Source of the DNA: an uncultured Bacilli bacterium
GTDB taxonomy: Bacteria > Bacillota_I > Bacilli_A > RFN20 > CAG-449
Length of the DNA: 64,000 nt
Direction of reading: 5' to 3'
NCBI GenBank assembly: GCA_947588815.1
Contig: CANQAG010000004.1
Coordinates: 26,193 to 90,192, forward strand
Both the position numbers and the translations under genes were made by a program. Under the pieces are notes generated by a model, which saw only the letters and a program-made list of their open reading frames with translations, was not told the DNA's origin and made no database searches. Shown here one piece after another: positions 3,324 to 37,878 of the stretch; position 1 is the first letter of the stretch; each line of letters begins with the position of its first letter.

Positions 3324-5963
3324 ATGTACGAAACTAAGACCAGTGAGGAAGTTTTAAAAGAACTTAATTCGTCTTTACAAGGATTAGACGAAGCGGAGGC
3401 ACAACAGCGACTACAAAAATATGGATATAATCAATTAAAAGACAAAAAGCAAAAAAAATTTATTACCCTATTTTTTGAACAATTTCTTGATCCGATGATT
3501 TTTATTTTATTGCTTGCGGCTGCGATAAGCATCGTTTTAAATGAAGTTTACGATGCGATTATCATCATGGTAGTTGTGATAACAAATGCTCTAATAGGTT
3601 CACTACAAGAATTTAAGGCCGAAAAAGATTTGGAAGCTTTAAAAAAATTATCATCTTCAATATCGGTGGTACGTCGCGAAGATAAGCTTTTAGAGATCGA
3701 TTCCAAATTATTGGTTCCCGGGGATATCGTGATACTTGAAGAAGGAAAAATTTCTAGCGCCGATATGCGCTTAATTAAAAGCGTTTCATTATTAGTTGAC
3801 GAATCAAATTTAACCGGTGAATCCCATGCGATAGAAAAAGACGCGGGATTAATTTACGAATCACCGCAAGCGATAAGTGAATGCGGCAATATGATTTTTG
3901 CTGCGACCCCGATTGTCAAAGGACGAGCAGAAGCGATCGTTTGTAAGACGGGGATGAATACTGAAATTGGTAAAATAGCGACTTTAATAAGTGATGACCA
4001 AGAAGAAACGCCTTTACAAAAAAAATTAGCATCTCTTGGAAAATTACTCGGACTTTTTATCGTTATTATTTGTTCGGCGCTATTTTTGGTGGCTCTTTTA
4101 AAAAATAATGATCCGGGTGAAATGCTATTGACTTCGATTTCGCTTGCTGTTGCGGCGATTCCAGAAGGCCTACCGGCTGTTGTTACCATCGTGCTTGCAA
4201 TCGGTGTGCAACGAATGGTAAAGGTGAATACGATTGTAAGAAAATTACCTTCAGTTGAAACGTTAGGCTCAGTTTCCATTGTTTGTTCTGATAAAACCGG
4301 AACCATTACTTTAAATCAAATGACAGTCAAAAATGGTTATTTTTCTTTTCGCGATCAAGAAGCAAAAAATATAGAAGAAATATTAATCGAAGGTTTGACT
4401 TTGTGCAGTAATGCAACACTTGAAACCGGAGATCCTACGGAAAAAGCTCTTGTGGTACTTGCTAAAAGCCATGAAATTGATGCGGAACATTTACGAAAAA
4501 TGCATCCACGCATATTTGAAATACCATTCTCCAGTGAAAGAAAAATGATGAGTGTCGGAGTGCTCTATAAAGGTCAAAAAATGACATTTATCAAAGGAGC
4601 CTTTGATGTCTTGTTAAATAGATGTGCCTTTATATATAAAGACAATCAAGTTATTAAAATGACTGATGCATTGAAAAACAAGTTACAGAAAAAGAATGAT
4701 GAATATTCTTCGAATGCTATGCGAGTATTAGCGTTAGCAATGGATTTCAAAGAAAATAAAGAAGAACAAAACTTGATTTTTGTCGGTTTAGTAGCCATGA
4801 TTGATCCACCACGCGAAAGCGTCAAAGAAGCGGTAGCACAATTTAAAAGGTCAGGGATAAAAACAGTAATGATAACAGGAGATCATATTGAAACAGCTTA
4901 TGCGATAGCAAAAGAAGTTGGTATTTGTAAATCGCGAAACGAATGTGCCTTGGGTCATGAATTGGAGAACAAGACAAAAGAGGAATTAAACCAAATTTTA
5001 AATCGTTGCAGTGTTTTTGCAAGAGTTTCTCCGACAAATAAAGTGCAGATAGTTAAGGGTTATAAAAACATGAACAATGTCGTGGCGATGACCGGAGACG
5101 GAGTCAATGATGCGCCAAGTTTAAAAGCTGCTGACATCGGTATTTCGATGGGAATCAATGGTAGTGATGTGGCAAAAAATTCCTCAGATATGATATTGCT
5201 TGATGATAATTTTGCTTCAATTGAAAAAGCCTGTGAAGAAGGGCGAAATATTTATCGTAATATAAAAAATTCGGTAATGTTTTTATTGTCCAGCAATTTT
5301 GGAGAAGTGCTGGTGATGTTTATTGCAATTGTAATCGGATTACCAAGTCCCCTTGTTGCTATTCACATTTTATGGGTTAATCTTATTTCAGATGCTTTAC
5401 CGGCCTTGGCTTTAGGCGCAGATCAAAAAGACGACGACATTATGGATGATAAACCAAGAAAGTTTGGAGAATCTCTATTTGCTAATGGTGGCATTAAATT
5501 AAATATAATTTATTCGTTGGCGATTTTTGCGTTAAGTATGATTGCCTTTTTGATAGTCCCTTTAACCGTAATAGGGACTGAAAAAAATTTATGGGAACTT
5601 TTGTTCAATGGTTCTTTGCTTAGTGAAATAAACATTGCATTAAATCAAGAACCGATATTACTAAAATCGCGAACTTACGCTTTTACGGCTTTAGGAATGT
5701 CACAACTTTTCCATATGGTTGGAATGTCTAATGTCAAAAAGACTTTCTTTGCTGTCTTTAAAAAGAAAAATTTCTTAATGCTTTTGGCTTTTTTAGTCGG
5801 TTTACTTTTACAGATTGTCGTCACTGAAATTCCTTTTCTTATCAATTTTTTTAAAACTACTAGTTTAGATATTTATGAATGGGTGTGGCTTATTCTGTTA
5901 TCATCATTTCCTTTAGTTGTTCATGAAGTATTGGTTCCGGGATTTAAAAAAAGCAATTTTTAA
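3324..5963 (+). CDS. cation-transporting P-type ATPase, Ca2+-type (PMCA/SERCA-like, YloB-like)
   Basis: 879 aa; DKTGTIT phosphorylation motif, TGDGVNDAPSLKAADIG hinge motif, 10 predicted TM layout. Confidence 0.9.
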   Translation: MYETKTSEEVLKELNSSLQGLDEAEAQQRLQKYGYNQLKDKKQKKFITLFFEQFLDPMIFILLLAAAISIVLNEVYDAIIIMVVVITNALIGSLQEFKAEKDLEALKKLSSSISVVRREDKLLEIDSKLLVPGDIVILEEGKISSADMRLIKSVSLLVDESNLTGESHAIEKDAGLIYESPQAISECGNMIFAATPIVKGRAEAIVCKTGMNTEIGKIATLISDDQEETPLQKKLASLGKLLGLFIVIICSALFLVALLKNNDPGEMLLTSISLAVAAIPEGLPAVVTIVLAIGVQRMVKVNTIVRKLPSVETLGSVSIVCSDKTGTITLNQMTVKNGYFSFRDQEAKNIEEILIEGLTLCSNATLETGDPTEKALVVLAKSHEIDAEHLRKMHPRIFEIPFSSERKMMSVGVLYKGQKMTFIKGAFDVLLNRCAFIYKDNQVIKMTDALKNKLQKKNDEYSSNAMRVLALAMDFKENKEEQNLIFVGLVAMIDPPRESVKEAVAQFKRSGIKTVMITGDHIETAYAIAKEVGICKSRNECALGHELENKTKEELNQILNRCSVFARVSPTNKVQIVKGYKNMNNVVAMTGDGVNDAPSLKAADIGISMGINGSDVAKNSSDMILLDDNFASIEKACEEGRNIYRNIKNSVMFLLSSNFGEVLVMFIAIVIGLPSPLVAIHILWVNLISDALPALALGADQKDDDIMDDKPRKFGESLFANGGIKLNIIYSLAIFALSMIAFLIVPLTVIGTEKNLWELLFNGSLLSEINIALNQEPILLKSRTYAFTALGMSQLFHMVGMSNVKKTFFAVFKKKNFLMLLAFLVGLLLQIVVTEIPFLINFFKTTSLDIYEWVWLILLSSFPLVVHEVLVPGFKKSNF

Positions 5964-6200
5964 TTATTTCTTAGGATTTAATTGATTTTGAATAACGACG
6001 TTTTGTGAGTTAAGCGAAAGTAATACTTGGCCGAGTAATTCAAAAAAATTCCCTAAAGATCCTTGTTCATCGATATCTATTTCTTGCCCGATTACAAATC
6101 CAAGTGAAAAAGCTAGAATCGTTAATTCGTTTGCGGAAAGACCAAATAAAAAAGAACTGAAACTTTTTAATGAATGGTCATTTAAGTTATTTTGATTCAT
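5964..6200 (-). CDS. small hypothetical protein (78 aa from ATG 6200; ORF-track extension to 6263 lacks RBS)
   Basis: AAAGGAGTG 8 nt upstream of ATG at 6200 (minus strand); no recognisable domain. Confidence 0.4.
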   Translation of the reverse strand: MNQNNLNDHSLKSFSSFLFGLSANELTILAFSLGFVIGQEIDIDEQGSLGNFFELLGQVLLSLNSQNVVIQNQLNPKK

Positions 6201-24800: not shown

Positions 24801-26096
24801 ATGAAATTAACAGTTGTAGGAATGGGCTTTGTCGGCCTTGTGACCGCGGTTGGATTTGCTTCAAAGGGCAATCAAGTTTTTGCACTAGATTCTGATAAGA
24901 AAAAAATCGTTGCGCTACGTAAAAACGAAATCGAAACGATTGAACCTAAATTATATGATACTTTACTTGCTTCTGAAGCGAACATTAGGTTTACTGCGGA
25001 GACGCGAGATGCGATTTATGGCGCAGATTTAATTTTTATATGCGTTGAAACTATTGAAAAGGACAATAATCCGTGTGATACGACTGCATTATATCAAACA
25101 CTTAAAGAAATCTGTCGTTTTATTCAAAATGACGTTACGGTTGTCATTCGTTCGGCGGTTCCGGTTGGCACTTGCCAAGAAGTTCATGATTTCATGATGA
25201 CCATTACAAATAAAAAATATCGTATTGATGTTGTGAGTAATCCTGAATTCATTGCTCAAGGAACGGCGATGCGCGATATGTTAACTCCGGCGCGTGTAGT
25301 TATCGGTGTTTCTACCAAAGATTCACGCGAAAAAATGAAAGAACTTTATTCTAACTTTAAAGCACCATTACTGTTTGTTTCACCGAAAAGCGCGGAACTT
25401 ATCAAATATGCATCAAATGGATATTTAGCAGTTAAACTTTCCTACGTTAATGAACTTGCCGACTTGTGCGATGCCATTGGGGCCGATATTCAAGAAGTAA
25501 GTGTTGGTATTGGCTTAGATCCGCGTATCGGGAGTAAGTATATGTCTTCTGGTATTGGATACGGTGGACCTGCTTTGCCCCTTGATACTCAAGTTCTTTC
25601 AAATATGGCGAAGAATAACGACGTTGAACTTTCAATTCTCGATGCTGCTGTTGCAGCTAATGAAAGAAGACCGCATGCAATGATCGATAAGATGAAAAAG
25701 GAATTAGGAAGTATTGCGGGTATGCGTTTTGCGGTTCTCGGTTTGTCATATAAAGGAAATACCAATGACATTCGTCGTTCGCCGGCTTTTAGAGTTATCG
25801 AAGAATTGATTAAAGAGGATTGTCGAATTATCGCTTATGATAGTGTGGCAACGACTACCTTCCGAAAGAAAATGAAAAGTGATCAAAGAATCGCGTATGC
25901 TAATACTTTAGATGAAGCTTTAAAAACTTGCGATGCTGCCATTTTCTTAAATGATTGTGAAGAATTTAAAAATTTAACAAATGATCAAATTGTCGAATAT
26001 ATGAAAAAACCGATTGTGTTCGATGGTAAAGGAGTATTGAATCCTTATGAATTAAAGGATGTTAAATACTATGCAATCGGTAAAAAAAGGCCATAA
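24801..26096 (+). CDS. nucleotide-sugar dehydrogenase (UDP-glucose 6-dehydrogenase family)
   Basis: 431 aa; VVGMGFVGLV Rossmann N-term, catalytic Cys in GYGGPALP/SSGIGYGG region. Confidence 0.85.
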   Translation: MKLTVVGMGFVGLVTAVGFASKGNQVFALDSDKKKIVALRKNEIETIEPKLYDTLLASEANIRFTAETRDAIYGADLIFICVETIEKDNNPCDTTALYQTLKEICRFIQNDVTVVIRSAVPVGTCQEVHDFMMTITNKKYRIDVVSNPEFIAQGTAMRDMLTPARVVIGVSTKDSREKMKELYSNFKAPLLFVSPKSAELIKYASNGYLAVKLSYVNELADLCDAIGADIQEVSVGIGLDPRIGSKYMSSGIGYGGPALPLDTQVLSNMAKNNDVELSILDAAVAANERRPHAMIDKMKKELGSIAGMRFAVLGLSYKGNTNDIRRSPAFRVIEELIKEDCRIIAYDSVATTTFRKKMKSDQRIAYANTLDEALKTCDAAIFLNDCEEFKNLTNDQIVEYMKKPIVFDGKGVLNPYELKDVKYYAIGKKRP

Positions 26097-26132
26097 AAAA
26101 TTTAAATTTCGAACTTTATAAGAATTTTATTA

Positions 26133-26168
26133 ATAAGCGGTTTGTCTAAATGTCAAACCGCTTATTTT
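26133..26168 (+). terminator. rho-independent terminator after dehydrogenase gene; left boundary of defence island
   Basis: ataagcggtttg-(9 nt)-caaaccgcttat 12-bp stem then TTTT. Confidence 0.65.
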
Positions 26169-26273
26169 GTTATCTTTACTAATAATATTTAAGCTTTTTT
26201 ATTTTGACATGGATAGAATATTAGGATTTATTACTTATTTCTGTTTTTTTGGTTGCAAAATGAAATTTTTTTT

Positions 26274-26301
26274 TGACGAATTGATGCTCTGGTTGAATAA
26301 T
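26274..26301 (+). promoter_or_regulatory. putative promoter of island operon (-35 TTGACG, 17 nt, -10 AATAAT)
   Basis: hexamers read directly; position ~70 nt upstream of HTH gene; alternative AT-rich -10 candidates nearby. Confidence 0.3.
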
Positions 26302-26369
26302 TAAAAATTATTATGTATATTAAAAATGATTAATTATAAAGGTTGATATTGTTAAACGGAGGAAAGTCA

Positions 26370-26582
26370 ATGCTTATCTCATACAACAAATTGTGGAAAT
26401 TGATGATTGATAAAAACATTAATAAAACAAAGCTTCGCAAACAAGCAGGTATTTCATCGAACGCTATGGCAAAACTTGGAAAAAATGAATCTGTTCAAGT
26501 AGAGGTATTAGCGAAAATATGCAATTGCCTTGATTGTACGATGGATGAAATTATGGAAGTTTTTTCTAAAGATAAAGAATAA
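26370..26582 (+). CDS. small XRE/Cro-C1-type helix-turn-helix DNA-binding protein (possible controller of downstream R-M-like operon)
   Basis: 70 aa from ATG 26370 (ACGGAGGAAAG RBS); KTKLRKQAGISSNAMAKLGKNESVQVEVLAKICNCLDCTMDEI is a classical HTH_XRE pattern. Confidence 0.7.
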   Translation: MLISYNKLWKLMIDKNINKTKLRKQAGISSNAMAKLGKNESVQVEVLAKICNCLDCTMDEIMEVFSKDKE

Positions 26583-26636
26583 TCCCAAGGTTTAGCATAA
26601 GGCGTTATAGAATTGTTAGAAAATATGGGAGATCGT

Positions 26637-29600
26637 ATGGAACTAATAGATAATACATTAAAAACATTACGAGATGATATGGCAGGTGAAATAAAGAAAG
26701 GCAGTAAATTATCCATTGCGGCCGCTTGTTTTTCTATTTATGCATTTCAAGAGTTGAAAGAAAAATTACAAGATATAGATGAACTTCGTTTTATCTTTAC
26801 ATCACCTGCGTTTGTTACGGAAAAAGCAAAAAAGGAAAAACGAGAGTTTTATATTCCGAGACTTAATCGAGAACGTAGTCTCTATGGTACAGAATTTGAA
26901 GTGAAACTGAAAAATGAACTTAATCAAAAAGCGATAGCAAAAGAATGCGCTGACTGGATAAGAAAAAAGGTCACTTTTAAATCGAATGTCACCAATGAAA
27001 ATATGATGGGTTTTATCAACCTTGACGACAAAAACTATATGCCTATCAATGGATTTACTACTATTGATTTGGGATGTGAAAAAGGAAATAATGCTTATTG
27101 CATGATTCAAAAAACAGGTATGCCTTATGCAAAAGCGTACATGGATATTTTTGAAAAACTTTGGAACGATCAAAATAAACTTCAAGAAGTTACAGATGAA
27201 GTTATTAATAGTATTACAGCAGCATATAACGAAAATTCTCCCGATTTCATTTATTTTGTTACCCTTTACAATATCTTTAATGAATTTCTTGAAGATATAT
27301 CTGAGGACTTGTTGCCAAATGAAGCATCTGGTTTTAAGGATAGTAAGATTTGGAATATGCTTTACAATTTTCAAAGAGATGCAGCTCTTGCTATTATCAA
27401 TAAGTTGGAAAAGTTTAACGGCTGTATTCTTGCTGATAGTGTAGGGTTAGGTAAAACTTTTACGGCTCTCGCCGTTATCAAGTATTATGAAAATAGAAAT
27501 AAATCTGTTCTTGTCCTTTGCCCGAAAAAATTAGCCAACAACTGGAATACATATAAAGACAATTATGTAAATAATCCTATTGCGGAAGATAGGCTTCGCT
27601 ATGACGTCCTCTATCATACGGACTTAAACCGTACACAAGGAACTTCTAATGGCCTTGATTTAAGTAGGCTGAATTGGGGAAATTATGATCTAGTTGTAAT
27701 AGACGAATCTCATAATTTTCGTAACGGAGGAAAAGTAATAGAAAATCCTGATGATGACGATAAGGAAAATAGATATGTAAAACTTTTAAAAAAAGTTATC
27801 CGTGCCGGTGTGAAAACAAAGGTTCTTATGTTATCTGCAACACCGGTTAATAATAAATTTCTTGATTTGAAAAATCAACTTGCACTTGCCTATGAAGGCG
27901 ATACTAATTTAATTGACGAAAAATTGAATACTTCTCGAACCATTGATGAGATATTTAAAAACGCTCAAAGAGCTTTTACTACTTGGAGCAAATGGAAACC
28001 GGAAGAAAGAACTACCGAAAATTTGCTTCGGATGTTAGACTTTGATTTCTTTGAAGTTCTTGATAGCGTGACGATTGCTCGCTCCCGCAAGCACATTCAA
28101 AAATATTATGACACTACAGACATTGGTAAATTTCCTACAAGATTAAAACCAATTTCTCTTCGCCCACAACTTACTGATTTGAAATCGGCCATCAACTATA
28201 ATGAGATATTTGAACAGTTAATGCTTCTAACTCTTACAATTTATACGCCATCTCATTTTATCTTACCTAGTAGGATGGAAAAATATGCTGAAATTTTCAA
28301 AGATAACCGAGTAAATATTGGGTTTACACAAGCAAATCGTGAACAAGGTATTCAACGTTTAACAGCGATTAATTTAATGAAGCGCATGGAAAGTTCGGTA
28401 TATTCGTTTAAACTTACGCTTAATAGAATAAAAGATTTAATTAGCAGCACACTTCAATCAATAGATAATTATGACCATTCACAATCATTAACTTTTGAAT
28501 TAACCGATATTTCAAACATCGATGAATTTGATGATGAGGATCAAAATAACGATGAAATCTTTTCTATTGGAAAAAAGATTAAGATTGACATTGGTGATAT
28601 GGATTATAAATCGTGGCGCGATAGTCTTGCAAAAGACGCTGAAATTTTAGAACTTCTTTCATTAATGATTGAGGATATTACGCCTAAACATGACGCTAAA
28701 CTTCAAGAACTTTTTAGGGTGATTAAAGATAAATTTGCACAGCCTATAAACGATAACAATAAAAAAATTATTATTTTTACGGCTTTTACGGATACTGCAA
28801 AGTATTTATACGATAATGTGAGTGAATATGTTCTTTCTAATTATGGATTAAATACGGCGATGATTACCGGATCGATCGAGGGTCGTACTACGGTTCCTAA
28901 GTTGCGTTGTGATTTAAATACAGTGTTGACGTGTTTTTCCCCGATTTCAAAGAACAAACAACTTCTTATGCCAAATGACAATACCGAAATAGATATTCTG
29001 ATTGCAACGGATTGTATCTCTGAAGGACAAAATTTACAAGACTGCGACTATCTTATTAATTACGATATTCACTGGAATCCGGTACGAATTATTCAAAGAT
29101 TTGGCCGTATTGATCGTATTGGGAGTCACAATCAATATATTCAACTTGTAAATTTTTGGCCGGATGTTTCACTTGATGATTATATCAATTTAAAAGCAAG
29201 AGTTGAAACTCGTATGAAAATCGTTAATTTGACAGCAACAGGTGATGACAACATTCTTAGTGATGAAGAAAAAACAGATTTGGAATATCGTAAAGCCCAG
29301 CTTAAGCGTTTGCAAGACGAAGTTGTGGACATCGAGGATATGACAAGTGGAATATCAATAATGGATTTGGGATTAAATGAGTTTCGGTTGGATCTTTTAG
29401 AATATATGAAATATAACGATAATCTTGATAAGACTCCATTTGGGCTTCACGCCGTTGTGCCGGCAAATGATGAAATGCCGGCGGGAGTTATTTATGTCTT
29501 GAAGAATCGATCAAACAATGTAAATATCAATAATCAAAATCGGTTACATCCGTTTTATATGGTGTATATCTCTAATGAAGGTAAAGTGATATGCGATCAT

Positions 29601-29885
29601 CTTTCACCTAAAACAATGCTAGATAAGATGCGCTATCTATGCAAAGGTAAAAATGAACCTTATAAGGATCTTTGTAATAAGTTTAATCAAGAGACAAAAG
29701 ACGGGAAGGATATGCATAAATTTTCAATTCTACTCGGTAATGCAATATCCTCTATTATAGAGATAAAAGAAGAAAGCGATATCGATTCGTTCCTTAGTGG
29801 TGGACATGTTAGTTTTATCGACGCTACTATCAAAGGTTTGGATGACTTTGAACTTATTTGCTTTTTGGTTGTGAAGGAAAGATAA
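26637..29885 (+). CDS. SNF2-family (SF2) ATPase/helicase with ~270-aa N-terminal non-helicase domain
   Basis: Walker A ADSVGLGKTFTA, motif II VVIDESHNFRN, helicase-C block ILIATDCISEGQNLQDCDYLINYDIHWNPVRIIQRFGRIDRIGS; start placed at ATG 26637 (GGGAG 5 nt upstream; TTG 26613/ATG 26625 possible). Confidence 0.85.
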   Translation: MELIDNTLKTLRDDMAGEIKKGSKLSIAAACFSIYAFQELKEKLQDIDELRFIFTSPAFVTEKAKKEKREFYIPRLNRERSLYGTEFEVKLKNELNQKAIAKECADWIRKKVTFKSNVTNENMMGFINLDDKNYMPINGFTTIDLGCEKGNNAYCMIQKTGMPYAKAYMDIFEKLWNDQNKLQEVTDEVINSITAAYNENSPDFIYFVTLYNIFNEFLEDISEDLLPNEASGFKDSKIWNMLYNFQRDAALAIINKLEKFNGCILADSVGLGKTFTALAVIKYYENRNKSVLVLCPKKLANNWNTYKDNYVNNPIAEDRLRYDVLYHTDLNRTQGTSNGLDLSRLNWGNYDLVVIDESHNFRNGGKVIENPDDDDKENRYVKLLKKVIRAGVKTKVLMLSATPVNNKFLDLKNQLALAYEGDTNLIDEKLNTSRTIDEIFKNAQRAFTTWSKWKPEERTTENLLRMLDFDFFEVLDSVTIARSRKHIQKYYDTTDIGKFPTRLKPISLRPQLTDLKSAINYNEIFEQLMLLTLTIYTPSHFILPSRMEKYAEIFKDNRVNIGFTQANREQGIQRLTAINLMKRMESSVYSFKLTLNRIKDLISSTLQSIDNYDHSQSLTFELTDISNIDEFDDEDQNNDEIFSIGKKIKIDIGDMDYKSWRDSLAKDAEILELLSLMIEDITPKHDAKLQELFRVIKDKFAQPINDNNKKIIIFTAFTDTAKYLYDNVSEYVLSNYGLNTAMITGSIEGRTTVPKLRCDLNTVLTCFSPISKNKQLLMPNDNTEIDILIATDCISEGQNLQDCDYLINYDIHWNPVRIIQRFGRIDRIGSHNQYIQLVNFWPDVSLDDYINLKARVETRMKIVNLTATGDDNILSDEEKTDLEYRKAQLKRLQDEVVDIEDMTSGISIMDLGLNEFRLDLLEYMKYNDNLDKTPFGLHAVVPANDEMPAGVIYVLKNRSNNVNINNQNRLHPFYMVYISNEGKVICDHLSPKTMLDKMRYLCKGKNEPYKDLCNKFNQETKDGKDMHKFSILLGNAISSIIEIKEESDIDSFLSGGHVSFIDATIKGLDDFELICFLVVKER

Positions 29886-29888
29886 CTT

Positions 29889-30494
29889 ATGCTGGGATTA
29901 CCAAAAGCGACGGAAGTAAATAAACAGCTTCCAAAAAGTGCGATTTATTCAAAGTTCAAAATGAATATGACAGCCAAAGACCGAATTGATCGAGATATTT
30001 CACGAATTTACATCACTAATGAAGTAACTGCATCAAAAATCAACTTGAAAGATGGAGCGGAAATAAAATCCTTTTTCGTAATGTCAGTACTACTTAAACG
30101 TAAAGACTTTAATGAAAAAAATATGATTGCCCTTTCTAAGTTGATAATGCAAAATATAGTGTTAGTTCTTGAATATAAAAGTGAAGGCAAAATAATGGTG
30201 TGTCGAAATGGGAAACTTTTACAGACCGAATGGCAACCAAAGGAAAAACTTTTGCTTGAAATCAAAGGTTTGAACCTTGATATGGTATGGGATAATATCA
30301 TCATTCAAATAGGTGGATTGACTATTACATCTGGCAATACCATAGATGAACAAATAGATATTGAAGAGCAAAAAAACAAACTTCAAAAAGAGATTGATAA
30401 ACTTGAAAAACTCGCACGAGTTGAAAAACAACCTAGAAAGAAGTTTGAGATGCACCGACAAATTTTGAAATTAAAGCAGGAGGAATCGGAATGA
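29889..30494 (+). CDS. DUF4391-like small protein (helicase-associated), translationally coupled to SNF2 gene
   Basis: 201 aa; starts 3 nt after SNF2 stop with AAGGAAAG RBS; size/charge pattern and coiled-coil C-term resemble DUF4391 partners of SNF2 helicases (assignment from memory, unverified). Confidence 0.5.
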   Translation: MLGLPKATEVNKQLPKSAIYSKFKMNMTAKDRIDRDISRIYITNEVTASKINLKDGAEIKSFFVMSVLLKRKDFNEKNMIALSKLIMQNIVLVLEYKSEGKIMVCRNGKLLQTEWQPKEKLLLEIKGLNLDMVWDNIIIQIGGLTITSGNTIDEQIDIEEQKNKLQKEIDKLEKLARVEKQPRKKFEMHRQILKLKQEESE

Positions 30495-30925
30495 ATGAAA
30501 AATTTTATGAACTCTGTTATAAAATCTTGCATCGGTATTTAAATCTTCCCGATGTGGCAGATACATTTCGAAGCATACTAAAAGGAATAGATTACATAAA
30601 AAAATTTCCATGGGATATAAATGATTTTTTATGTAAAAAAAATGAAATTATCTCTTATATTCAAGATGTGCGCTGTAAAAATATAATTGATGGATATAAC
30701 GAAAATCCATATTTATTAACTCCTACACCATTTAGCAAAAAGCTTTCTGACACAAATCAAAATGAATTATATTCGAATCTAATCGGAGAAATTCCAAGAC
30801 TTATTCTTAAAGGAATGCATCAAGTTATTAAAAATTTATATAACATTAAAGATGATAATGAACTTACAGAAGAATTAGTACAAGAAAACATTACTGTTTT
30901 AATGAAATACAAACTAGTAAAATAG
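30491..30925 (+). CDS. hypothetical protein (144 aa), translationally coupled (ATGA overlap)
   Basis: AGGAGG 7 nt upstream; no recognisable domain. Confidence 0.5.
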   Translation: MNEKFYELCYKILHRYLNLPDVADTFRSILKGIDYIKKFPWDINDFLCKKNEIISYIQDVRCKNIIDGYNENPYLLTPTPFSKKLSDTNQNELYSNLIGEIPRLILKGMHQVIKNLYNIKDDNELTEELVQENITVLMKYKLVK

Positions 30926-30939
30926 GGAGGATAAAGGCG

Positions 30940-32832
30940 ATGAATAAACTTAAAATGCAAACTATAAACAAAGCAGATGAGAATTTCAAGAGATTGACGG
31001 AAATGTTTCCGAATGCTATTACAGAAACGATAGATGAAAACGGCGAAGTTGTTCGTGCTATTGACAAAGATGTTCTTATGCAAGAAATCTCTTGCAAAGT
31101 AGTTGAAGGGCGCGAAGAACGTTATCAATTTACTTGGCCGGACAAGAGAAAATCTGTTCTGCTTGCAAATGCGCCTATTAACAAAACACTCCGTCCTTGT
31201 CGTGAAGAAAGCGTGAATTTTGACAACACCGAAAACCTTTATATTGAGGGTGATAATCTTGAAGTGTTAAAGCTTTTGCAGGAAACTTATCTAGGCAAAA
31301 TTAAAATGATATATATTGATCCACCTTATAATACGGGTAATGACTTTGTGTATGAGGATAATTTTACTCAAAGCACTGATGAATATCTTGCAAATAGCGG
31401 ACAATATGACGATCAAGGCAATCGGTTATATCAAAATACAGAAAGTAATGGTAGATTTCATACTGATTGGCTGAACATGATATATCCAAGGTTGAAACTA
31501 GCAAAAGATTTGCTCCGAGAAGACGGTATGGTCTTTATTAGCATTGACGATAACGAACAAGAAAACCTAAAGAAAATTTGTGATGAAATATTTGGAAGTG
31601 CTAATTTTGTTGCTAATTTTATATGGAAAAAAACAAGCAACCCAAATTCAACAGGAAACAATATTGGTGTTGAACACGAATACATTATTTCATATTCGAA
31701 AAGTAATAAGTATATTTTAAATTCTTTACCATTGGATAAAGAAGATTTTGATAAATATATAGGTAAAGATGAATTCTTAGAAGAAAGAGGACCATATAAA
31801 CTTGTTGGTTTAAATAAGACGGGAACTGTAAATGATTTAAGAGCTAATTTAATGTATGATATTGAAGCACCAGATGGTAGTATAATTAAACCAAATCCAA
31901 GATGGAGATGGTCATTAGAAAAATTTAACAAATGCAAAACAGAAAATAGAATAGTATTTATTAAATATAATGAAAAATGGAGCGTCTCGTATAAACAATA
32001 TTTAAATGAAGATACTGAAGGCAATATTGTAGCTCGAGGAAAGTTAATTAAAACAATTTTTAGTGATAATGGTAGAACAACTGATGGTACATTGGAAATA
32101 AATAGTTTATTAGGAAAGGGTTATTTTGATTTTCCAAAACCAAAAGATTTAATAAAAAAACTACTTTTCATATCTTCGAAAAAAAATGATATTATCCTCG
32201 ATTTCTTTTCCGGCTCTGCTACAACCGCTCATGCTGTTATGCAACTCAATGCCGAAGATGGAGGCAACCGAAAGTTTATTATGGTACAGCTTCCCGAAGT
32301 ATGCGATGAAAAAAGTGAAGCCTATAAAGCAGGTTATAAGAATATTTGCGAAATCGGAAAAGAACGTATCCGTCGAGCAGGTAAAAAAATCAAGGATGAA
32401 AATCCACTTACAACGCAAGATCTTGATATTGGATTCCGTGTTTTGAAGTGTGATACATCAAATATGAAAGATGTTTACTATAATCCCAAAGATATCGAAA
32501 TTTCATTGTTTGAAAACGATGATAACAATATCAAAGAAGATCGCACACCGGAAGATTTGTTGTTCCAAGTAATGCTCGATTTAGGAGTGTTGCTTTCTTC
32601 TAAAATTGAAGAAAAAGAAATTGCCGGAAAGAAAGTATTTAATGTTGCTGATGGTTTCCTCATTGCTTGCTTTGATGAAAATGTAACAGAAGAAACGATA
32701 AAAGAAGTTGCTAAGCAAAAACCATATTATTTTGTCATGCGAGATAGTTCTATGGCAAACGACAGCGTAGCTACCAACTTTGAGCAAATTTTTGCTACAT
32801 ATAGTCCGGATACGGTAAGGAAGGTGCTGTAA
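30940..32832 (+). CDS. mod: Type III restriction-modification Mod subunit, N6-adenine DNA methyltransferase
   Basis: 630 aa; IYIDPPYNTGNDF (DPPY motif IV), FxGSGTT-like AdoMet motif FFSGSATTAHAV; GGGAGG RBS. Confidence 0.9.
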   Translation: MNKLKMQTINKADENFKRLTEMFPNAITETIDENGEVVRAIDKDVLMQEISCKVVEGREERYQFTWPDKRKSVLLANAPINKTLRPCREESVNFDNTENLYIEGDNLEVLKLLQETYLGKIKMIYIDPPYNTGNDFVYEDNFTQSTDEYLANSGQYDDQGNRLYQNTESNGRFHTDWLNMIYPRLKLAKDLLREDGMVFISIDDNEQENLKKICDEIFGSANFVANFIWKKTSNPNSTGNNIGVEHEYIISYSKSNKYILNSLPLDKEDFDKYIGKDEFLEERGPYKLVGLNKTGTVNDLRANLMYDIEAPDGSIIKPNPRWRWSLEKFNKCKTENRIVFIKYNEKWSVSYKQYLNEDTEGNIVARGKLIKTIFSDNGRTTDGTLEINSLLGKGYFDFPKPKDLIKKLLFISSKKNDIILDFFSGSATTAHAVMQLNAEDGGNRKFIMVQLPEVCDEKSEAYKAGYKNICEIGKERIRRAGKKIKDENPLTTQDLDIGFRVLKCDTSNMKDVYYNPKDIEISLFENDDNNIKEDRTPEDLLFQVMLDLGVLLSSKIEEKEIAGKKVFNVADGFLIACFDENVTEETIKEVAKQKPYYFVMRDSSMANDSVATNFEQIFATYSPDTVRKVL

Positions 32833-33854
32833 TGGAAAATAAGATACAAAGTGAGATTCTTATTTATCAAACTGAAAAAGGAAATACAAAACTTGATGTA
32901 CGTCTAGAAGATGAAACTGTTTGGCTAACGCAGGCACAACTAGTAGAACTTTATCAAACTACAAAATCGAATGTAAGTGAACATATTAAGCATATCTTTG
33001 AAGATGGTGAATTGGATGAAACATTAGTTGTTCGGAATTTCCGAACAACTGCTTCTGACGGAAAAAAATATAACACAAAATATTATAACTTAGACATGAT
33101 AATTTCACTAGGATATCGTATTCGTAGTATAACGGCAACGCATTTTAGAAAATGGGCGACAGAACGTTTAAAAGAATATATTATCAAAGGTTTCACAATG
33201 GATGATGAGCGTTTAAAAGGGAATGGCGGCGGACAATATTGGAAAGAGCTGCTTGCAAGAATTCGTGATATTCGCTCATCTGAAAAAGTACTTTATCGTC
33301 AAGTACTTGATCTTTACGCTACAAGCGTTGATTACGATCCAAATAGTGAAATATCGATTGAATTTTTCAAAATTGTGCAGAACAAATTACATTATGCAGC
33401 TCATGGTCATACTGCTGCGGAAGTGATCTATGAACGAGCTGACGCTAATAAGCCATTTATGGGGATGAAAAGTTTTAAAGGAGATTTTCCGACTCTTGCC
33501 GATGCGAAGATTGCTAAAAATTATCTTAATGAGGATGAACTAAAAGTGTTAGGTAATCTTGTTTCGGGATATTTTGATTTTGCAGAAATTCAAGCAATCC
33601 GAAAGCACCCGATGTATATGAAAGATTACATAGAGAATCTTGATTCTATTCTTTCCGCGACTGGCGAAAAACTTTTACTTAATGCTGGAAAAATCAGTCA
33701 CCAAGAAGCTATAGATAAAGCAATAGCGGAATATAGAAAATATCAAGTGCAAACCCTTTCTCCTGTCGAAGAAGTGTATCTAGAAATGGTAAAAAATACA
33801 GAAAAGACAATTAAAAAACTTACGAAAAATAGTGAAAAAGGAGAGCAAAAGTGA
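32832..33854 (+). CDS. RhuM-family (virulence protein RhuM/Fic-DOC-like) protein embedded between mod and res
   Basis: 340 aa; N-terminal EILIYQTEKGNTKLDVRLEDETVWLTQAQLVELYQTTKSNVSEHIKHIF typical of RhuM family; start overlaps mod stop (TAATG). Confidence 0.8.
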   Translation: MENKIQSEILIYQTEKGNTKLDVRLEDETVWLTQAQLVELYQTTKSNVSEHIKHIFEDGELDETLVVRNFRTTASDGKKYNTKYYNLDMIISLGYRIRSITATHFRKWATERLKEYIIKGFTMDDERLKGNGGGQYWKELLARIRDIRSSEKVLYRQVLDLYATSVDYDPNSEISIEFFKIVQNKLHYAAHGHTAAEVIYERADANKPFMGMKSFKGDFPTLADAKIAKNYLNEDELKVLGNLVSGYFDFAEIQAIRKHPMYMKDYIENLDSILSATGEKLLLNAGKISHQEAIDKAIAEYRKYQVQTLSPVEEVYLEMVKNTEKTIKKLTKNSEKGEQK

Positions 33855-36800
33855 AATTCAATTTTAAAATACAACAGTATCAAACTGACGCTGTGAATGC
33901 AGTTGTTAAAGTTTTTGCCGGTCAGGGTTTTAGGGAAAAAATAAACTATATTCGCGATACTGGAAAACAGATTGCTAATGATCATCAGCAAACACAACTT
34001 ATTTTCGATAATAATGAAAAATACGATTGGTATGATCCGTTAAACGATACTGGCTATAAAAATGCACCTTTGGAACTTTCCGATGAAGAACTTTTAAGTA
34101 ATATTAAAAACCTGCAAATCGAAAATAATATTAAACAATCGGTTTCACTGAATAAAGAATTGGGGCAATGTTCTCTTGATATAGAGATGGAAACCGGTAC
34201 TGGCAAAACATATGTGTATATTAAGACGATGTTTGAACTAAACAAGCTGTACGGATGGAGCAAGTTTATTGTCGTTGTACCCTCCATCGCTATCCGTGAA
34301 GGAGTGAAAAAGTCCTTTGAAATCACGATAGATCATTTTATGGAATATTATGGTAAAAAAGCTCGTTTTTTCGTTTACAATAGTAGTAACTTATCACAGC
34401 TAGATAACTTTTCTCAAAGTTCCGGTATCAATGTGATGATTATTAACACGCAAGCTTTTGCTTCCTCTTTAAAGGAAGACGGAAAAAGTAAAGAAGCCCG
34501 TATTATTTATTCTAAACGAGATGAATTTGGTTCCCGTCGTCCAATTGATGTAATCAAAGCAAATAGACCTATTATCATTTTGGATGAACCGCAAAAAATG
34601 GGTGGTGATGTCACACAAAAGGCACTTAAAAACTTTAATCCACTTTTTTCTCTTAATTACTCTGCTACTCACGCTAAACAACATAATCTCATATATGTGC
34701 TTGACGCTCTCGACGCTTTCAACGAGCGCCTCGTGAAGAAAATTGAAGTAAAAGGTTTTGAAGTTAAAAATTTTCGAGGAACGGATGGCTACCTCTATTT
34801 AGAGAAAATTGTCCTTTCTTCAAAAAATCCGCCGATGGCAAAAATCGAACTTGAAATCGGATATAATAAGTCCATAAAACGTGAGACGAGACTATTAGGT
34901 GTCGGGGATGATCTATATTATGTCTCGCAAAAGATGGAACAATACAAAGGGTTTACGATTTCCGAAGTAGATCAGTTGCGTGGAACTGTTACATTTACTA
35001 ATGGTAATGTCATAGCTGTTGGGGAAATAGTAAACGATGTGTCTGAGAAAGATATGCGTCGTATTCAAATAAGAGAAACGATACTTTCTCATTTCGAAAA
35101 AGAAGAAAAGCTTTTTAATATGGGAATTAAATCTTTGTCGTTATTTTTTATAGATGAAGTAGCTAAATATCGCCAATATGATGAAGATGGTAACGAGATA
35201 TTAGGCGAATATGGAAAAATATTTGAACAAGAATATATTAATGTTCTCAATGAGTACATCACCATATTTGATACACCTTATCAAAAATATCTCCGCTCTA
35301 CTTGTAGCGATGTTTCATCTGTACATAAAGGTTATTTCAGTATTGATAAAAAGACCGGCAGAAGTATTGATAGTCAATTAAAAAGAGGCAGTGAGTTTTC
35401 AGATGATATTTCTGCTTATGATTTGATACTCAAAAACAAAGAACGTTTGCTGTCATTTGACGAACCTACAAGGTTTATCTTTTCTCACTCAGCGCTCCGT
35501 GAAGGTTGGGATAATCCCAATGTGTTCCAAATTTGCACTTTGAAACATTCTGATAGTAATACCACAAAGCGTCAGGAAGTTGGTAGAGGACTGAGACTTT
35601 GTGTCAATCAATTCGGCAACCGAATGGATGTTGAAACTCTTGGAGACAATGTTCACGACGTGAACCTCCTTACCGTAATTGCTAGTGAAAGTTATAAGAC
35701 CTTTGTGTCTGATTTACAAAGTGACATCAAGGCGGTTCTTTATGATAGACCGACAGTAGCAACGAGTGAATATTTTGCTGGGAAATGTGTAAAAGTTGGT
35801 GATTGTTTCACTACTATTGACGATAAAATTGCTAATAAACTTGAATATTATCTCATACAAAACAAGTATGTTAATATAGAACGCAAGGTGACAGATAAAT
35901 ATCGCGAAGATGTGGCAAACGGAACATTAGTACCACTTCCAGATGATCTTGCTCCAATGGCAGAGGGTATTCATAAGCTTATTCAATCCGTCTATGACGA
36001 CAGTATGTTGGAAAGTATGTTTACTGATGGTCACGAGTCTAAAATTATGGACAATCCGCTGAATGAAAATTTTGCTAAAAAAGAATTTCAGGCACTTTGG
36101 AATGAAATCAATCGTAAGTATGCCTATACAGTTAGCTTTGATAGTGAGGAACTGATAAAAAAAGCGATCGACTACATCGATCAGAAACTATTTGTTTCTG
36201 AATTACAATACACAACGACTATCGGAAGGCAGAAAGACAAGATGAACGAAAATGAAATTGAAAACCTAACTTCGTTCAGCAACGAAAAAACGAGAACCCA
36301 AACGTTGAAACATACTGAAGCAAGCAACGTAAAATATGATCTTATTGGAAAAGTAGCGGAAGGTACTATTCTTACAAGAAAAACTGTAGCAAGGATATTG
36401 AAAGGAATTAGGAAAGATAAGCTTAAGATGTTTAGCTATAATCCTGAAGAATTTATATCAAAAATAATAAAACTCATTAAAGAGCAGAAAGCTACAATGA
36501 TTGTTGAACACATTTCCTACAATCAAATTGATGGAAAGTATGATAGCACGATTTTTACTGCTGAAAAAACTACAGTTAGATTTGATAAGGCATATCTTGC
36601 CAAAAAAGCGATTCAAGATTATGTATTTATAGATGGAACGGCAGAAAATAGTATTGAAAGAAGATTCGCTAAAAGTTTAGATGAAGCTGATGAAGTTTGT
36701 GTCTATGCTAAGCTACCGAGAACTTTCCAAATACCGACACCAGTGGGTAACTATTCCCCTGATTGGGCGATAGCTTTTTATGAAGGTAAAGTAAAACATA

Positions 36801-36973
36801 TTTTCTTTATTGCTGAAACGAAAGGTACAATGGAAAGCTTGAATCTGCGACCAATTGAACAGGCTAAGATTTCATGTGCAAAAAAGTTGTTTAACGAAAT
36901 GTCTACAAGCAAGGTAAAGTATCATGAAGTTGATAGTTATACAAAATTGCTTAATGTAATAGAGATGCTTTAA
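33851..36973 (+). CDS. res: Type III restriction enzyme Res subunit (SF2 helicase + C-terminal PD-(D/E)xK nuclease)
   Basis: 1040 aa; Walker A ETGTGKTYV, DEPQ (motif II ILDEPQK), C-terminal PDWAIAF...IAETKG nuclease block; GTG start at 33851 with AAGGAGAG RBS overlapping RhuM stop (GTGA). Confidence 0.9.
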   Translation: MKFNFKIQQYQTDAVNAVVKVFAGQGFREKINYIRDTGKQIANDHQQTQLIFDNNEKYDWYDPLNDTGYKNAPLELSDEELLSNIKNLQIENNIKQSVSLNKELGQCSLDIEMETGTGKTYVYIKTMFELNKLYGWSKFIVVVPSIAIREGVKKSFEITIDHFMEYYGKKARFFVYNSSNLSQLDNFSQSSGINVMIINTQAFASSLKEDGKSKEARIIYSKRDEFGSRRPIDVIKANRPIIILDEPQKMGGDVTQKALKNFNPLFSLNYSATHAKQHNLIYVLDALDAFNERLVKKIEVKGFEVKNFRGTDGYLYLEKIVLSSKNPPMAKIELEIGYNKSIKRETRLLGVGDDLYYVSQKMEQYKGFTISEVDQLRGTVTFTNGNVIAVGEIVNDVSEKDMRRIQIRETILSHFEKEEKLFNMGIKSLSLFFIDEVAKYRQYDEDGNEILGEYGKIFEQEYINVLNEYITIFDTPYQKYLRSTCSDVSSVHKGYFSIDKKTGRSIDSQLKRGSEFSDDISAYDLILKNKERLLSFDEPTRFIFSHSALREGWDNPNVFQICTLKHSDSNTTKRQEVGRGLRLCVNQFGNRMDVETLGDNVHDVNLLTVIASESYKTFVSDLQSDIKAVLYDRPTVATSEYFAGKCVKVGDCFTTIDDKIANKLEYYLIQNKYVNIERKVTDKYREDVANGTLVPLPDDLAPMAEGIHKLIQSVYDDSMLESMFTDGHESKIMDNPLNENFAKKEFQALWNEINRKYAYTVSFDSEELIKKAIDYIDQKLFVSELQYTTTIGRQKDKMNENEIENLTSFSNEKTRTQTLKHTEASNVKYDLIGKVAEGTILTRKTVARILKGIRKDKLKMFSYNPEEFISKIIKLIKEQKATMIVEHISYNQIDGKYDSTIFTAEKTTVRFDKAYLAKKAIQDYVFIDGTAENSIERRFAKSLDEADEVCVYAKLPRTFQIPTPVGNYSPDWAIAFYEGKVKHIFFIAETKGTMESLNLRPIEQAKISCAKKLFNEMSTSKVKYHEVDSYTKLLNVIEML

Positions 36974-37317
36974 TTATTAAAAATTTCATTTTATCTAAAT
37001 ATTTTCATAATAATATAATAAAAAGCTCGATAAAGGTATGAGATTGATTAGGGAGTAAAATTTAACTTTTATCAAAATATAAATAAGTATTTTCTGTATG
37101 TAATGTGAGTGTAATTTTTTGTTCTTTGCATTGCAAAGTATAGATAATATTTATGTTTTTCATTTTGAAAAAAGGGAAAGCAGCACTTGAAAAAAATACG
37201 GAATAGAATTATAATTAAAATACGAATTAGGATTTAAAATTCGGATTATGAATGAACTAAACTTTTAACAGAATCGCAATAGAAGCACACAAAAAATTAG
37301 ATGGGAGGTATAAATAT

Positions 37318-37878
37318 ATGAAAATTGTTGTTTTAACGGGTAGTCCGCAAAAGCATGGCTCTTCAAATTTACTTGTAGAGCAATTTGCTAAAGGAGCAAG
37401 TGAATCTGGAAATATTATTTCTATCATCGATACAGCACGAATAAATGTCAATCCGTGCATTGGGTGTGTTAAATGTGGATATGGTGGTCCTTGTGTGCAA
37501 GATGACGATATGGGTTCTACAAAATCTGAAAAAGGTAAGATTAAATCTAAAATTCTCGATGCGGATATGATTGTTTTTGCAACACCACTTTATTACTATG
37601 GAACGACTTCCCAGCTCAAGACGGTCATAGATCGTTTTTGTGCATTTAATGGCGAAATTCAACGAAAACACATGAAGTCTGCACTTATTTCTGTCGCGTG
37701 GAACGCTGACGATTGGACTTTTGATGCATTAGTAGCGCACTATAAAACCCTTGTGAAATATCTTAATTTTGTAGATATGGGAATTATTCTCGGTAAGGGC
37801 TGTGGAACGGTTGATATGACGATACGTTCTCAGTATCCAAAAAAAGCTTATGAATTTGGTAAAAGCCTAAAAAGGTAA
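37318..37878 (+). CDS. iron-sulfur flavoprotein (Isf-like, NADPH-dependent FMN reductase fold)
   Basis: 186 aa; flavodoxin-like MKIVVLTGSPQKHGSS N-term plus compact CxxCxxCx5C cluster motif (CIGCVKCGYGGPC). Confidence 0.7.
   Translation: MKIVVLTGSPQKHGSSNLLVEQFAKGASESGNIISIIDTARINVNPCIGCVKCGYGGPCVQDDDMGSTKSEKGKIKSKILDADMIVFATPLYYYGTTSQLKTVIDRFCAFNGEIQRKHMKSALISVAWNADDWTFDALVAHYKTLVKYLNFVDMGIILGKGCGTVDMTIRSQYPKKAYEFGKSLKR

Follow-up and report, generated by a model that had tools for sequence, protein, structure and literature searches.

The 64,000-nucleotide stretch of DNA from an uncultured Bacilli bacterium that we analysed (contig CANQAG010000004.1; hereafter the window) carries an operon in which a SNF2-family ATPase gene is separated from mod and res, which belong to a Type III restriction-modification (R-M) system, by two small open reading frames (ORFs). 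ORF1 encodes a protein of 201 amino acids (aa) belonging to the DUF4391 family, and ORF2 encodes a 144-aa orphan. Comparison with related loci identifies DUF4391 as the fourth constant member of a helicase-assisted Type III restriction operon that is widespread. The position between DUF4391 and mod is a hypervariable slot, and many of its occupants are known or candidate anti-phage genes. ORF2 is a rare orphan in this cargo slot and not part of the conserved machine. A preliminary description of the window had taken both small proteins as stoichiometrically co-expressed partners of the helicase that might act as specificity or effector subunits; the comparison separates the two.

For this comparison, 80 species-level loci were retrieved with DUF4391 peptide patterns alone, and the six window proteins were located in them by tblastn (individual loci are given by L numbers). 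A SNF2 orthologue (65–99% identity) lies directly upstream of DUF4391 in 69 of the 70 loci having enough upstream DNA, with a median gap of 19 bp between the two genes, and mod and res follow downstream in 57 of the 61 loci having at least 9 kb of downstream DNA. The exceptions look like decay or truncation: L031 lacks SNF2, L035 and L071 contain fragments of mod/res only, and L029 is without mod/res. In L048, the fetched DNA stops short of Res. When 51 loci were compared in pairs, the divergences of SNF2, DUF4391 and Res correlated with each other (r 0.74–0.78), and that of Mod tracked these three proteins less closely (r 0.43–0.50). DUF4391 itself is about twice as divergent as SNF2 and Res (mean distance 0.41 versus 0.22). 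The proposed partnership with the helicase is thus borne out for DUF4391 and not for ORF2, which is found in 4 of the 80 loci, at a position filled elsewhere by about 60 other families.

The same order of genes is found well outside the Firmicutes, also where DUF4391 has diverged strongly. On Acinetobacter plasmids encoding DUF4391 proteins with 22–25% identity, a helicase-related protein, DUF4391, a methyltransferase and a DEAD/DEAH helicase follow each other with gaps of 3–17 nt. The helicase is present in 88 of 5426 complete E. coli genomes, and the three E. coli lineages that we examined, including CFT073, encode a helix-turn-helix (HTH) regulator, the helicase, DUF4391, a methyltransferase and a Type III endonuclease. 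The CFT073 operon (L102; NC_004431.1 5116943–5127508) is located at the leuX island, where it adjoins BrxA and phosphorothioate-restriction gene remnants; its slot measures 587 bp and contains only one small hypothetical ORF, on the opposite strand. ABU 83972, like CFT073 a uropathogenic model strain, has the same operon at this island. On the A. baumannii plasmid pYFY27.1 (L099, 4702–5451), a TIR-domain gene is positioned directly upstream of the helicase in an otherwise compact operon, and defence cargo may therefore also gather at the 5' edge of the system.

The distance from DUF4391 to mod varies from 7 to 6234 bp, with a median of 960 bp, and is below 100 bp in 7 of 73 loci. In 66 of these 73 loci this slot (slot 1) is occupied, by a total of 110 same-strand ORFs of at least 60 aa, with mechanically called starts; by sequence they form 60 clusters, and 98% of the slot length consists of same-strand ORFs. 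Among the occupants we identified TIR proteins (PDC-S66/ThsB-like) in nine loci, a 598-aa DUF4365 protein in eight loci, DUF6680, a pair composed of ThsB-TIR and PDC-M50A, SIR2+HerA, AAA_13/PDC-S06 (AAA_13/PrrC-like), a KAP NTPase/PDC-S20 and HATPase_c+DUF4325. Occupants in E. coli are an OLD-family nuclease with DUF2130 or a UvrD-like protein of 900 aa. Seven loci, and a number of those from Acinetobacter and E. coli, have no slot gene. Whatever the cargo, the median distance between the DUF4391 stop codon and the start of the first cargo ORF is 0 nt; this start lies within 30 nt in 61 of 65 cases, and the exact ATGA overlap is seen in 17. Because unrelated cargo is joined to DUF4391 this tightly, the ATGA overlap seen in the window is a property of the slot and not of ORF2, and it loses the meaning given to it in the preliminary description as a sign of stoichiometric partnership.

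The interval between mod and res constitutes a second variable slot. Its median length is 721 bp, and the ORFs that it holds in 56 loci form 45 clusters. In the window it is filled by a RhuM-family gene, whose stop/start codons overlap those of its neighbours; RhuM is present in 7 of the 80 loci. Elsewhere this slot contains AbiJ-like, DUF3644+EC042_2821 nuclease-like (REase-like) and membrane-protein genes.

The occurrence of ORF2 relatives in 4 of the 80 DUF4391 loci is not that of a core operon gene. In the other SNF2–DUF4391 operons with ORF2, the gene likewise occupies slot 1 and overlaps DUF4391 by 4–8 nt. Further relatives are located in operons of different composition. The relative in L089 is flanked by a radical SAM gene and a SLFN-like helicase, and MazG and AAA_15/21 genes are close by. 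The one in L004 has a DUF4365-like gene of 531 aa on one side and a KAP NTPase on the other, alongside an Eco57I-like gene. In L094 and L097 the preceding genes encode an Eco57I-type IIG enzyme, M.Eco57I and a fragment resembling LlaJI, and those that follow are a split AAA_13 gene and GmrSD. In L093 an M.Eco57I fragment precedes the relative and a TPR protein follows it. The slot copy of L091 and the radical-SAM-context copy of L089 share 72% amino-acid identity, which points to a recent move from one context to another. The conserved linkage to SNF2, mod and res on which the preliminary description had staked its interpretation is therefore present for ORF1, whereas relatives of ORF2 also reside in unrelated defence operons.

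In accordance with the preliminary description, which saw no recognisable motif in the 144-aa protein, ORF2 had no match in Pfam, PADLOC, NCBIfam or PHROGs. Full-length homologues numbered 13 among 5.8 billion clusters, at 40–99% identity, and a profile search of 1.84 billion representatives returned 47 relatives, 28 of them below 1e-10. The ratio of nonsynonymous to synonymous substitution rates (dN/dS) is 0.16–0.26 for homologue pairs with unsaturated dS. Together, the full-length homologues and these dN/dS values show that ORF2 encodes a real protein of a rare family that is under purifying selection. Its predicted model is all-helical (predicted local distance difference test score (pLDDT) 89.6, predicted template modelling score (pTM) 0.86), with helices spanning residues 3–15, 20–37, 43–62, 90–116, 122–130 and 134–139. 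ORF2 has an isoelectric point (pI) of 6.7 and a net charge of about 0, and the family is soluble and mildly acidic (pI 4.5 to 7.8). When ORF2 was compared by hhalign with all slot cargo clusters, it matched its own cluster only, and no match was found in viral contigs, plasmids or PHROGs. Its charge and its absence from phage and plasmid collections rule out a DNA-mimic anti-restriction protein of the Ocr/ArdA type.

The close ORF2 family shares the motif EIPRLILKGxHQxIKH, which includes R-x6-H. In an alignment of 30 members that includes distant relatives, only I57, R61 and G108 are invariant, and N64, L93, L97, E100, K107, K114 and Y140 are nearly so, whereas R103 and H110 vary. No family member matched any HEPN family. 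HEPN proteins have a conserved Rx4-6H motif in the last core helix of a four-helix bundle; since R103 and H110 are not conserved and since HEPN matches are missing throughout the family, assignment of ORF2 to HEPN was rejected. On the long helix, E100, K107 and K114 follow one another at intervals of seven residues, beside R61 and N64, and this arrangement suggests a conserved binding face. Two database proteins, P0149 and P0156, carry the C-terminal half of the ORF2 family (from about residue 70–88) on unrelated N-termini, one of which resembles a DUF1016/YhcG-type nuclease by eye; both probably arose in defence islands as chimeras, by recombination or deletion.

The description of the 201-aa protein as DUF4391-like was confirmed by the PF14335 hidden Markov model (HMM), which ORF1 matches from end to end with a score of 94 bits (gathering cutoff 29.9), residues 2–198 aligning to profile positions 1–231 of 232. 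The database contains 2178 DUF4391 homologues. The AlphaFold2 (AF2) model of ORF1 (pLDDT 86.8, pTM 0.74) is composed of an alpha/beta domain (residues 12–142) and a C-terminal helical hairpin formed by helices 152–178 and 182–200. This hairpin corresponds to the lysine/glutamate-rich sequence IDIEEQKNKLQKEIDKLEKLARVEKQPRKK, for which a coiled coil had been predicted and which is present in the ORF1 translation. We found no sequence relative of ORF1 in the PDB, and the top match of its model in a Foldseek search of the PDB had an E of only 0.2. From Clostridia to Acinetobacter, the residues P5, P15, K16, L110, W115, Q140, I141, E179 and Q181 are invariant. They include no recognisable catalytic set, and the E-K-Q motif is located at the turn of the C-terminal hairpin. 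Based on these two features, we infer that DUF4391 is probably non-enzymatic and serves as a structural protein or adaptor. Neither DUF4391 nor ORF2 is represented by a PADLOC model. The literature searched mentions DUF4391 with no functional statement, in one case apparently as a slip for DUF7941, and does not mention PF14335.

In L029, a locus of a Ruminococcus metagenome-assembled genome (MAG), DUF4391 is fused to a C-terminal ASCH (PUA-like) domain (5070–6197). The SNF2 gene and an extra 153-aa ORF lie upstream of this fusion, and mod/res are absent within 9 kb downstream. The fusion, seen at this single locus, gives a weak hint that DUF4391 may work near nucleic acid.

The order of genes in the window is HTH, SNF2, DUF4391, ORF2, mod, RhuM and res, with the positions given in the table below. 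Such operons have five to seven genes, of which SNF2, DUF4391, mod and res are the constant ones. Housekeeping genes flank the operon, and the locus is therefore chromosomal. The positions, the tight junctions and the good ribosome-binding sites given for the two ORFs in the preliminary description were all read in the sequence. The SNF2 stop codon TAA (29883–29885) is followed by ctt and by the ATG of ORF1 at 29889, which leaves a gap of 3 nt; upstream of this ATG lies GAAGGAAAG. At 30491–30494, ATGA combines the start of ORF2 with the stop of ORF1, with AGGAGG 8 nt upstream. The ORF2 stop codon TAG (30923–30925) precedes the mod ATG at 30940 by 14 nt that contain GGAGG. Both ORFs are, as judged from their homologues and, for ORF2, from dN/dS, genuine genes beyond chance ORFs. 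In a weak consensus scan of the plus strand, no terminator-like site was found between 26000 and 37400 and the best promoter-like site was located at 26273–26301, which is consistent with a single operon.

Table. Genes and regions of the operon, in window coordinates.
Feature	Position	Strand	Basis and remarks
HTH gene, Cro/C1-type, 79 aa	26343..26582	+	PF13443 HTH_26, E 3.9e-18; first gene of operon
SNF2-family ATPase gene, 1090 aa	26613..29885	+	SNF2-rel_dom, Helicase_C and ResIII matches
ORF1, DUF4391 protein, 201 aa, ATG start	29889..30494	+	PF14335, E 1.7e-26
ORF2 (S144), 144 aa, ATG start	30491..30925	+	orphan helical protein between DUF4391 and mod
mod, Type III methyltransferase, 630 aa	30940..32832	+	N6_N4_Mtase E 8.3e-37; PADLOC MTase_III E 2.1e-232
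Central part of mod not aligning with L007	31577..32189	no strand	blastn of window against L007
RhuM-family gene	32832..33854	+	PF13310 E 5.3e-106; PADLOC PDC-S05 E 9.7e-162
res, Type III helicase-nuclease	33851..36973	+	ResIII and RE_endonuc; PADLOC REase_III E 6.6e-290

The SNF2 ORF is listed from a TTG at 26613. Because its relatives align from residue 9 (MELIDN...) onward, translation probably starts at the ATG at 26637, in which case 54 nt would separate the HTH gene from SNF2. Two domains of SNF2 gave no match in Pfam, one of about 240 aa at the N-terminus (237 aa searched) and one of about 190 aa at the C-terminus. The protein matches the PADLOC model C3a139, labelled HKD+Snf2, from end to end (E 1.3e-123); it differs from this model in having no HKD centre. 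The first histidine of SNF2 is residue 335, with none in residues 1–334. The HxK(x)4D motif is thus impossible in the N-terminus, and together with the missing Pfam match this rules out a PLD/HKD nuclease there despite the PADLOC label. In about 17 of the 80 loci (L008, L013, L041, L050, L083, L057 and about 11 more), SNF2 carries an extra C-terminal domain of about 120 aa that belongs to the YspA/cpYpsA-related SLOG family (PF10686) and is absent from the window protein. This fused domain accounts for an apparent gap of about 400 bp between SNF2 and DUF4391 in these loci. The YspA/SLOG family is predicted to bind nucleotides or nucleotide-derived ligands.

An HTH homologue was found by tblastn directly upstream of SNF2 in 24 of 69 related loci, and also in L001 and L003, whereas larger HTH regulators precede the helicase in E. 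coli. The HTH gene of the window may be the controller of the operon.

Sequence membership places Mod and Res in a Type III R-M pair; the score of Res (398 bits) is below the NCBIfam equivalog cutoff of 564. In Type III R-M systems, ATP-dependent cleavage needs two inversely oriented unmethylated sites, and Mod hemimethylates DNA. In blastn comparison with L007, from an uncultured Bacilli MAG of the rabbit gut, the window is 98.8% identical over 26044–31576 and 99.0% identical over 32190–37400, with nothing aligned between. About 610 bp in the middle of mod are thus unaligned in operons that are otherwise near-identical. This looks like a swap of the target-recognition region that would change the specificity between the two systems. 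Variation in specificity maps to the target-recognition region of mod, and the suggestion that one of the two small proteins is a specificity subunit found no support.

Based on these observations, we favour, with a probability of about 0.7, a Type III R-M system that is extended by the conserved SNF2/DUF4391 pair, in which ORF1 would be a constant subunit and ORF2 interchangeable cargo of slot 1. Restriction by the enzyme Mod2Res would be of the ordinary Type III kind. SNF2 would translocate along DNA or remodel it, and DUF4391 would be its adaptor, the C-terminal hairpin of which would dock or oligomerise the SNF2 motor; DUF4391 might also link SNF2 to Mod/Res or to the product of the next gene. 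The cargo would be read from the operon transcript and translationally coupled to DUF4391. For ORF2, we envisage a small non-enzymatic auxiliary defence protein, a binder or sensor, that would add a second layer to restriction on the model of PrrC in EcoprrI. Several points weigh against this interpretation. The contacts of DUF4391 with SNF2, Mod/Res or cargo are ones that we infer, and mirror-tree analysis did not single out a partner for it (partial r 0.36 with SNF2 and 0.42 with Res), because all the core genes co-diverge. For the Type III systems BspHIV and Eco86II, which have an extra superfamily 2 (SF2) helicase-like gene 5' of mod, it was reported that this helicase is dispensable for methylation and for partial in vitro cleavage and that Mod/Res was purified without it (Murray et al, 2021, PLoS One, PMC8259958); its absence from the purified enzyme weighs against a stable holoenzyme. 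The promoter and terminator scans yielded consensus matches that do not exceed the expectation from shuffled sequence. Finally, ORF2 has no motif, fold match or known relative, and its defence role is assigned through guilt by association only.

The biochemical behaviour of the BspHIV and Eco86II helicase, dispensable and not purified with Mod/Res, is also the main support for a reading that we consider possible but rather unlikely, in which SNF2 and DUF4391 form a self-contained defence or DNA-remodelling module that shares the operon without a Mod/Res complex, the slot genes being independent hitch-hikers. The retention of SNF2 and DUF4391-ASCH without mod/res in L029 and the presence among the cargo of complete stand-alone systems such as SIR2+HerA point the same way. 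However, mod and res accompany the pair in nearly all informative loci and across phyla, SNF2, DUF4391 and Res co-diverge, and the exceptions look like decay, L031 having lost SNF2 and L035 and L071 retaining remnants of mod/res. A further proposal, that SNF2–DUF4391 is a general docking or activation platform on which DUF4391 binds whichever protein its coupled downstream gene encodes, seems unlikely to us. If it were true, dozens of effectors as unrelated as TIR, SIR2+HerA, OLD, KAP, AAA_13 and ORF2 would be wired to one DNA-surveillance motor and one Type III enzyme, the 144-aa family would be a minimal sensor or effector of a new kind with the ability to plug into several restriction systems, and the whole would represent a modular "restriction-guarded" immune chassis extending from Clostridia to E. 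coli CFT073.

The remaining alternatives concern ORF2. A role of ORF2 in controlling or moderating the restriction system itself, such as that of a factor for the self-protection or the assembly of Mod, as opposed to direct action on phages, would agree with the N6-adenine methyltransferase gene adjoining it in most contexts (mod, or an M.Eco57I-type gene in L093, L094 and L097) and with a small, soluble, mildly acidic protein having no catalytic motif. Against this, L089 and L004 lack an immediately adjacent methyltransferase, no HTH or known regulator fold was found in ORF2, and most loci do without the gene, so that we regard this role as quite unlikely. That ORF2 is a minimal HEPN-type RNase toxin that would serve as an abortive-infection effector on restriction failure is very improbable in our view, given the variable R103 and H110. 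We give least credence to the view of a single SNF2 complex that includes the two small proteins as stoichiometric subunits, ORF2 being its specificity or effector subunit. The tight stop/start junctions in the window and the overlap of ORF2 with DUF4391 in the other carrier loci agree with it, but ORF2 is missing from 76 of the 80 loci that keep SNF2, DUF4391, mod and res, the slot is empty in a number of loci, unrelated cargo is coupled to DUF4391 just as tightly, and ORF2 relatives occur in contexts with neither SNF2 nor DUF4391.

Under the favoured interpretation of an R-M system extended by SNF2/DUF4391 and its slot, DUF4391 would be the second conserved protein that accompanies the extra helicase of Type III systems, which has been reported in hundreds of genomes. 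The position after DUF4391 would represent a translationally coupled hot spot at which known and candidate anti-phage genes are exchanged. The 144-aa family, a small and predicted well-folded orphan that recurs in restriction and defence operons, is a candidate new defence-associated protein. More generally, restriction enzymes may act as a chassis for layered immunity beyond the single example of PrrC, and this idea is experimentally addressable: because E. coli CFT073 and ABU 83972 carry the operon, deletion combined with phage or plasmid challenge is practical.

Among characterised systems, Class 1 DISARM resembles the window operon in having a SNF2-family ATPase beside an adenine methyltransferase gene, and partial DrmD matches were obtained. 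Class 1 DISARM, however, is composed of the DrmD SNF2 helicase, the DrmMI methyltransferase and DrmA/B/C, whereas the window encodes a canonical Type III Res nuclease. This assignment was ruled out, since the DrmD score was 154.8 bits against a cutoff of 610 and DrmA, DrmB and DrmC are absent; the six operon proteins gave no DUF1998 (DrmB) or PLD match in Pfam.

Another likeness is to Eco86II and BspHIV, in which an SF2 helicase-like gene is likewise found upstream of Type III mod and res, an architecture that the E. coli and Acinetobacter loci match. The extra helicase-like gene was found in more than 500 genomes and contains no nuclease motif, its role was called unknown by the authors, and neither DUF4391 nor the genes inserted between helicase and mod were mentioned (PMC8259958). 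The loci described here differ in that DUF4391 accompanies the helicase in every lineage examined and is followed by a variable cargo slot. E. coli NCTC86 (Eco86II) was not among the matches listed, and the link to the work of Murray et al is therefore by architecture alone; that their helicase is of the same family is not confirmed. For the cargo, the comparison is with the PrrC anticodon nuclease, which, as summarised in PMC12707154, lies in the Type IC EcoprrI locus. In both cases an accessory defence gene lies inside a restriction operon, with which it is, or here would be, co-expressed as a back-up layer. For PrrC, a single defined protein, the trigger (T4 Stp) and the activity are known, whereas the slot described here takes about 60 families unrelated to each other, and no catalytic domain was recognised in ORF2. 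Helicase-extended Type III systems and accessory defence genes in restriction operons are thus both known themes, and the operon of the window is a variant of the two.

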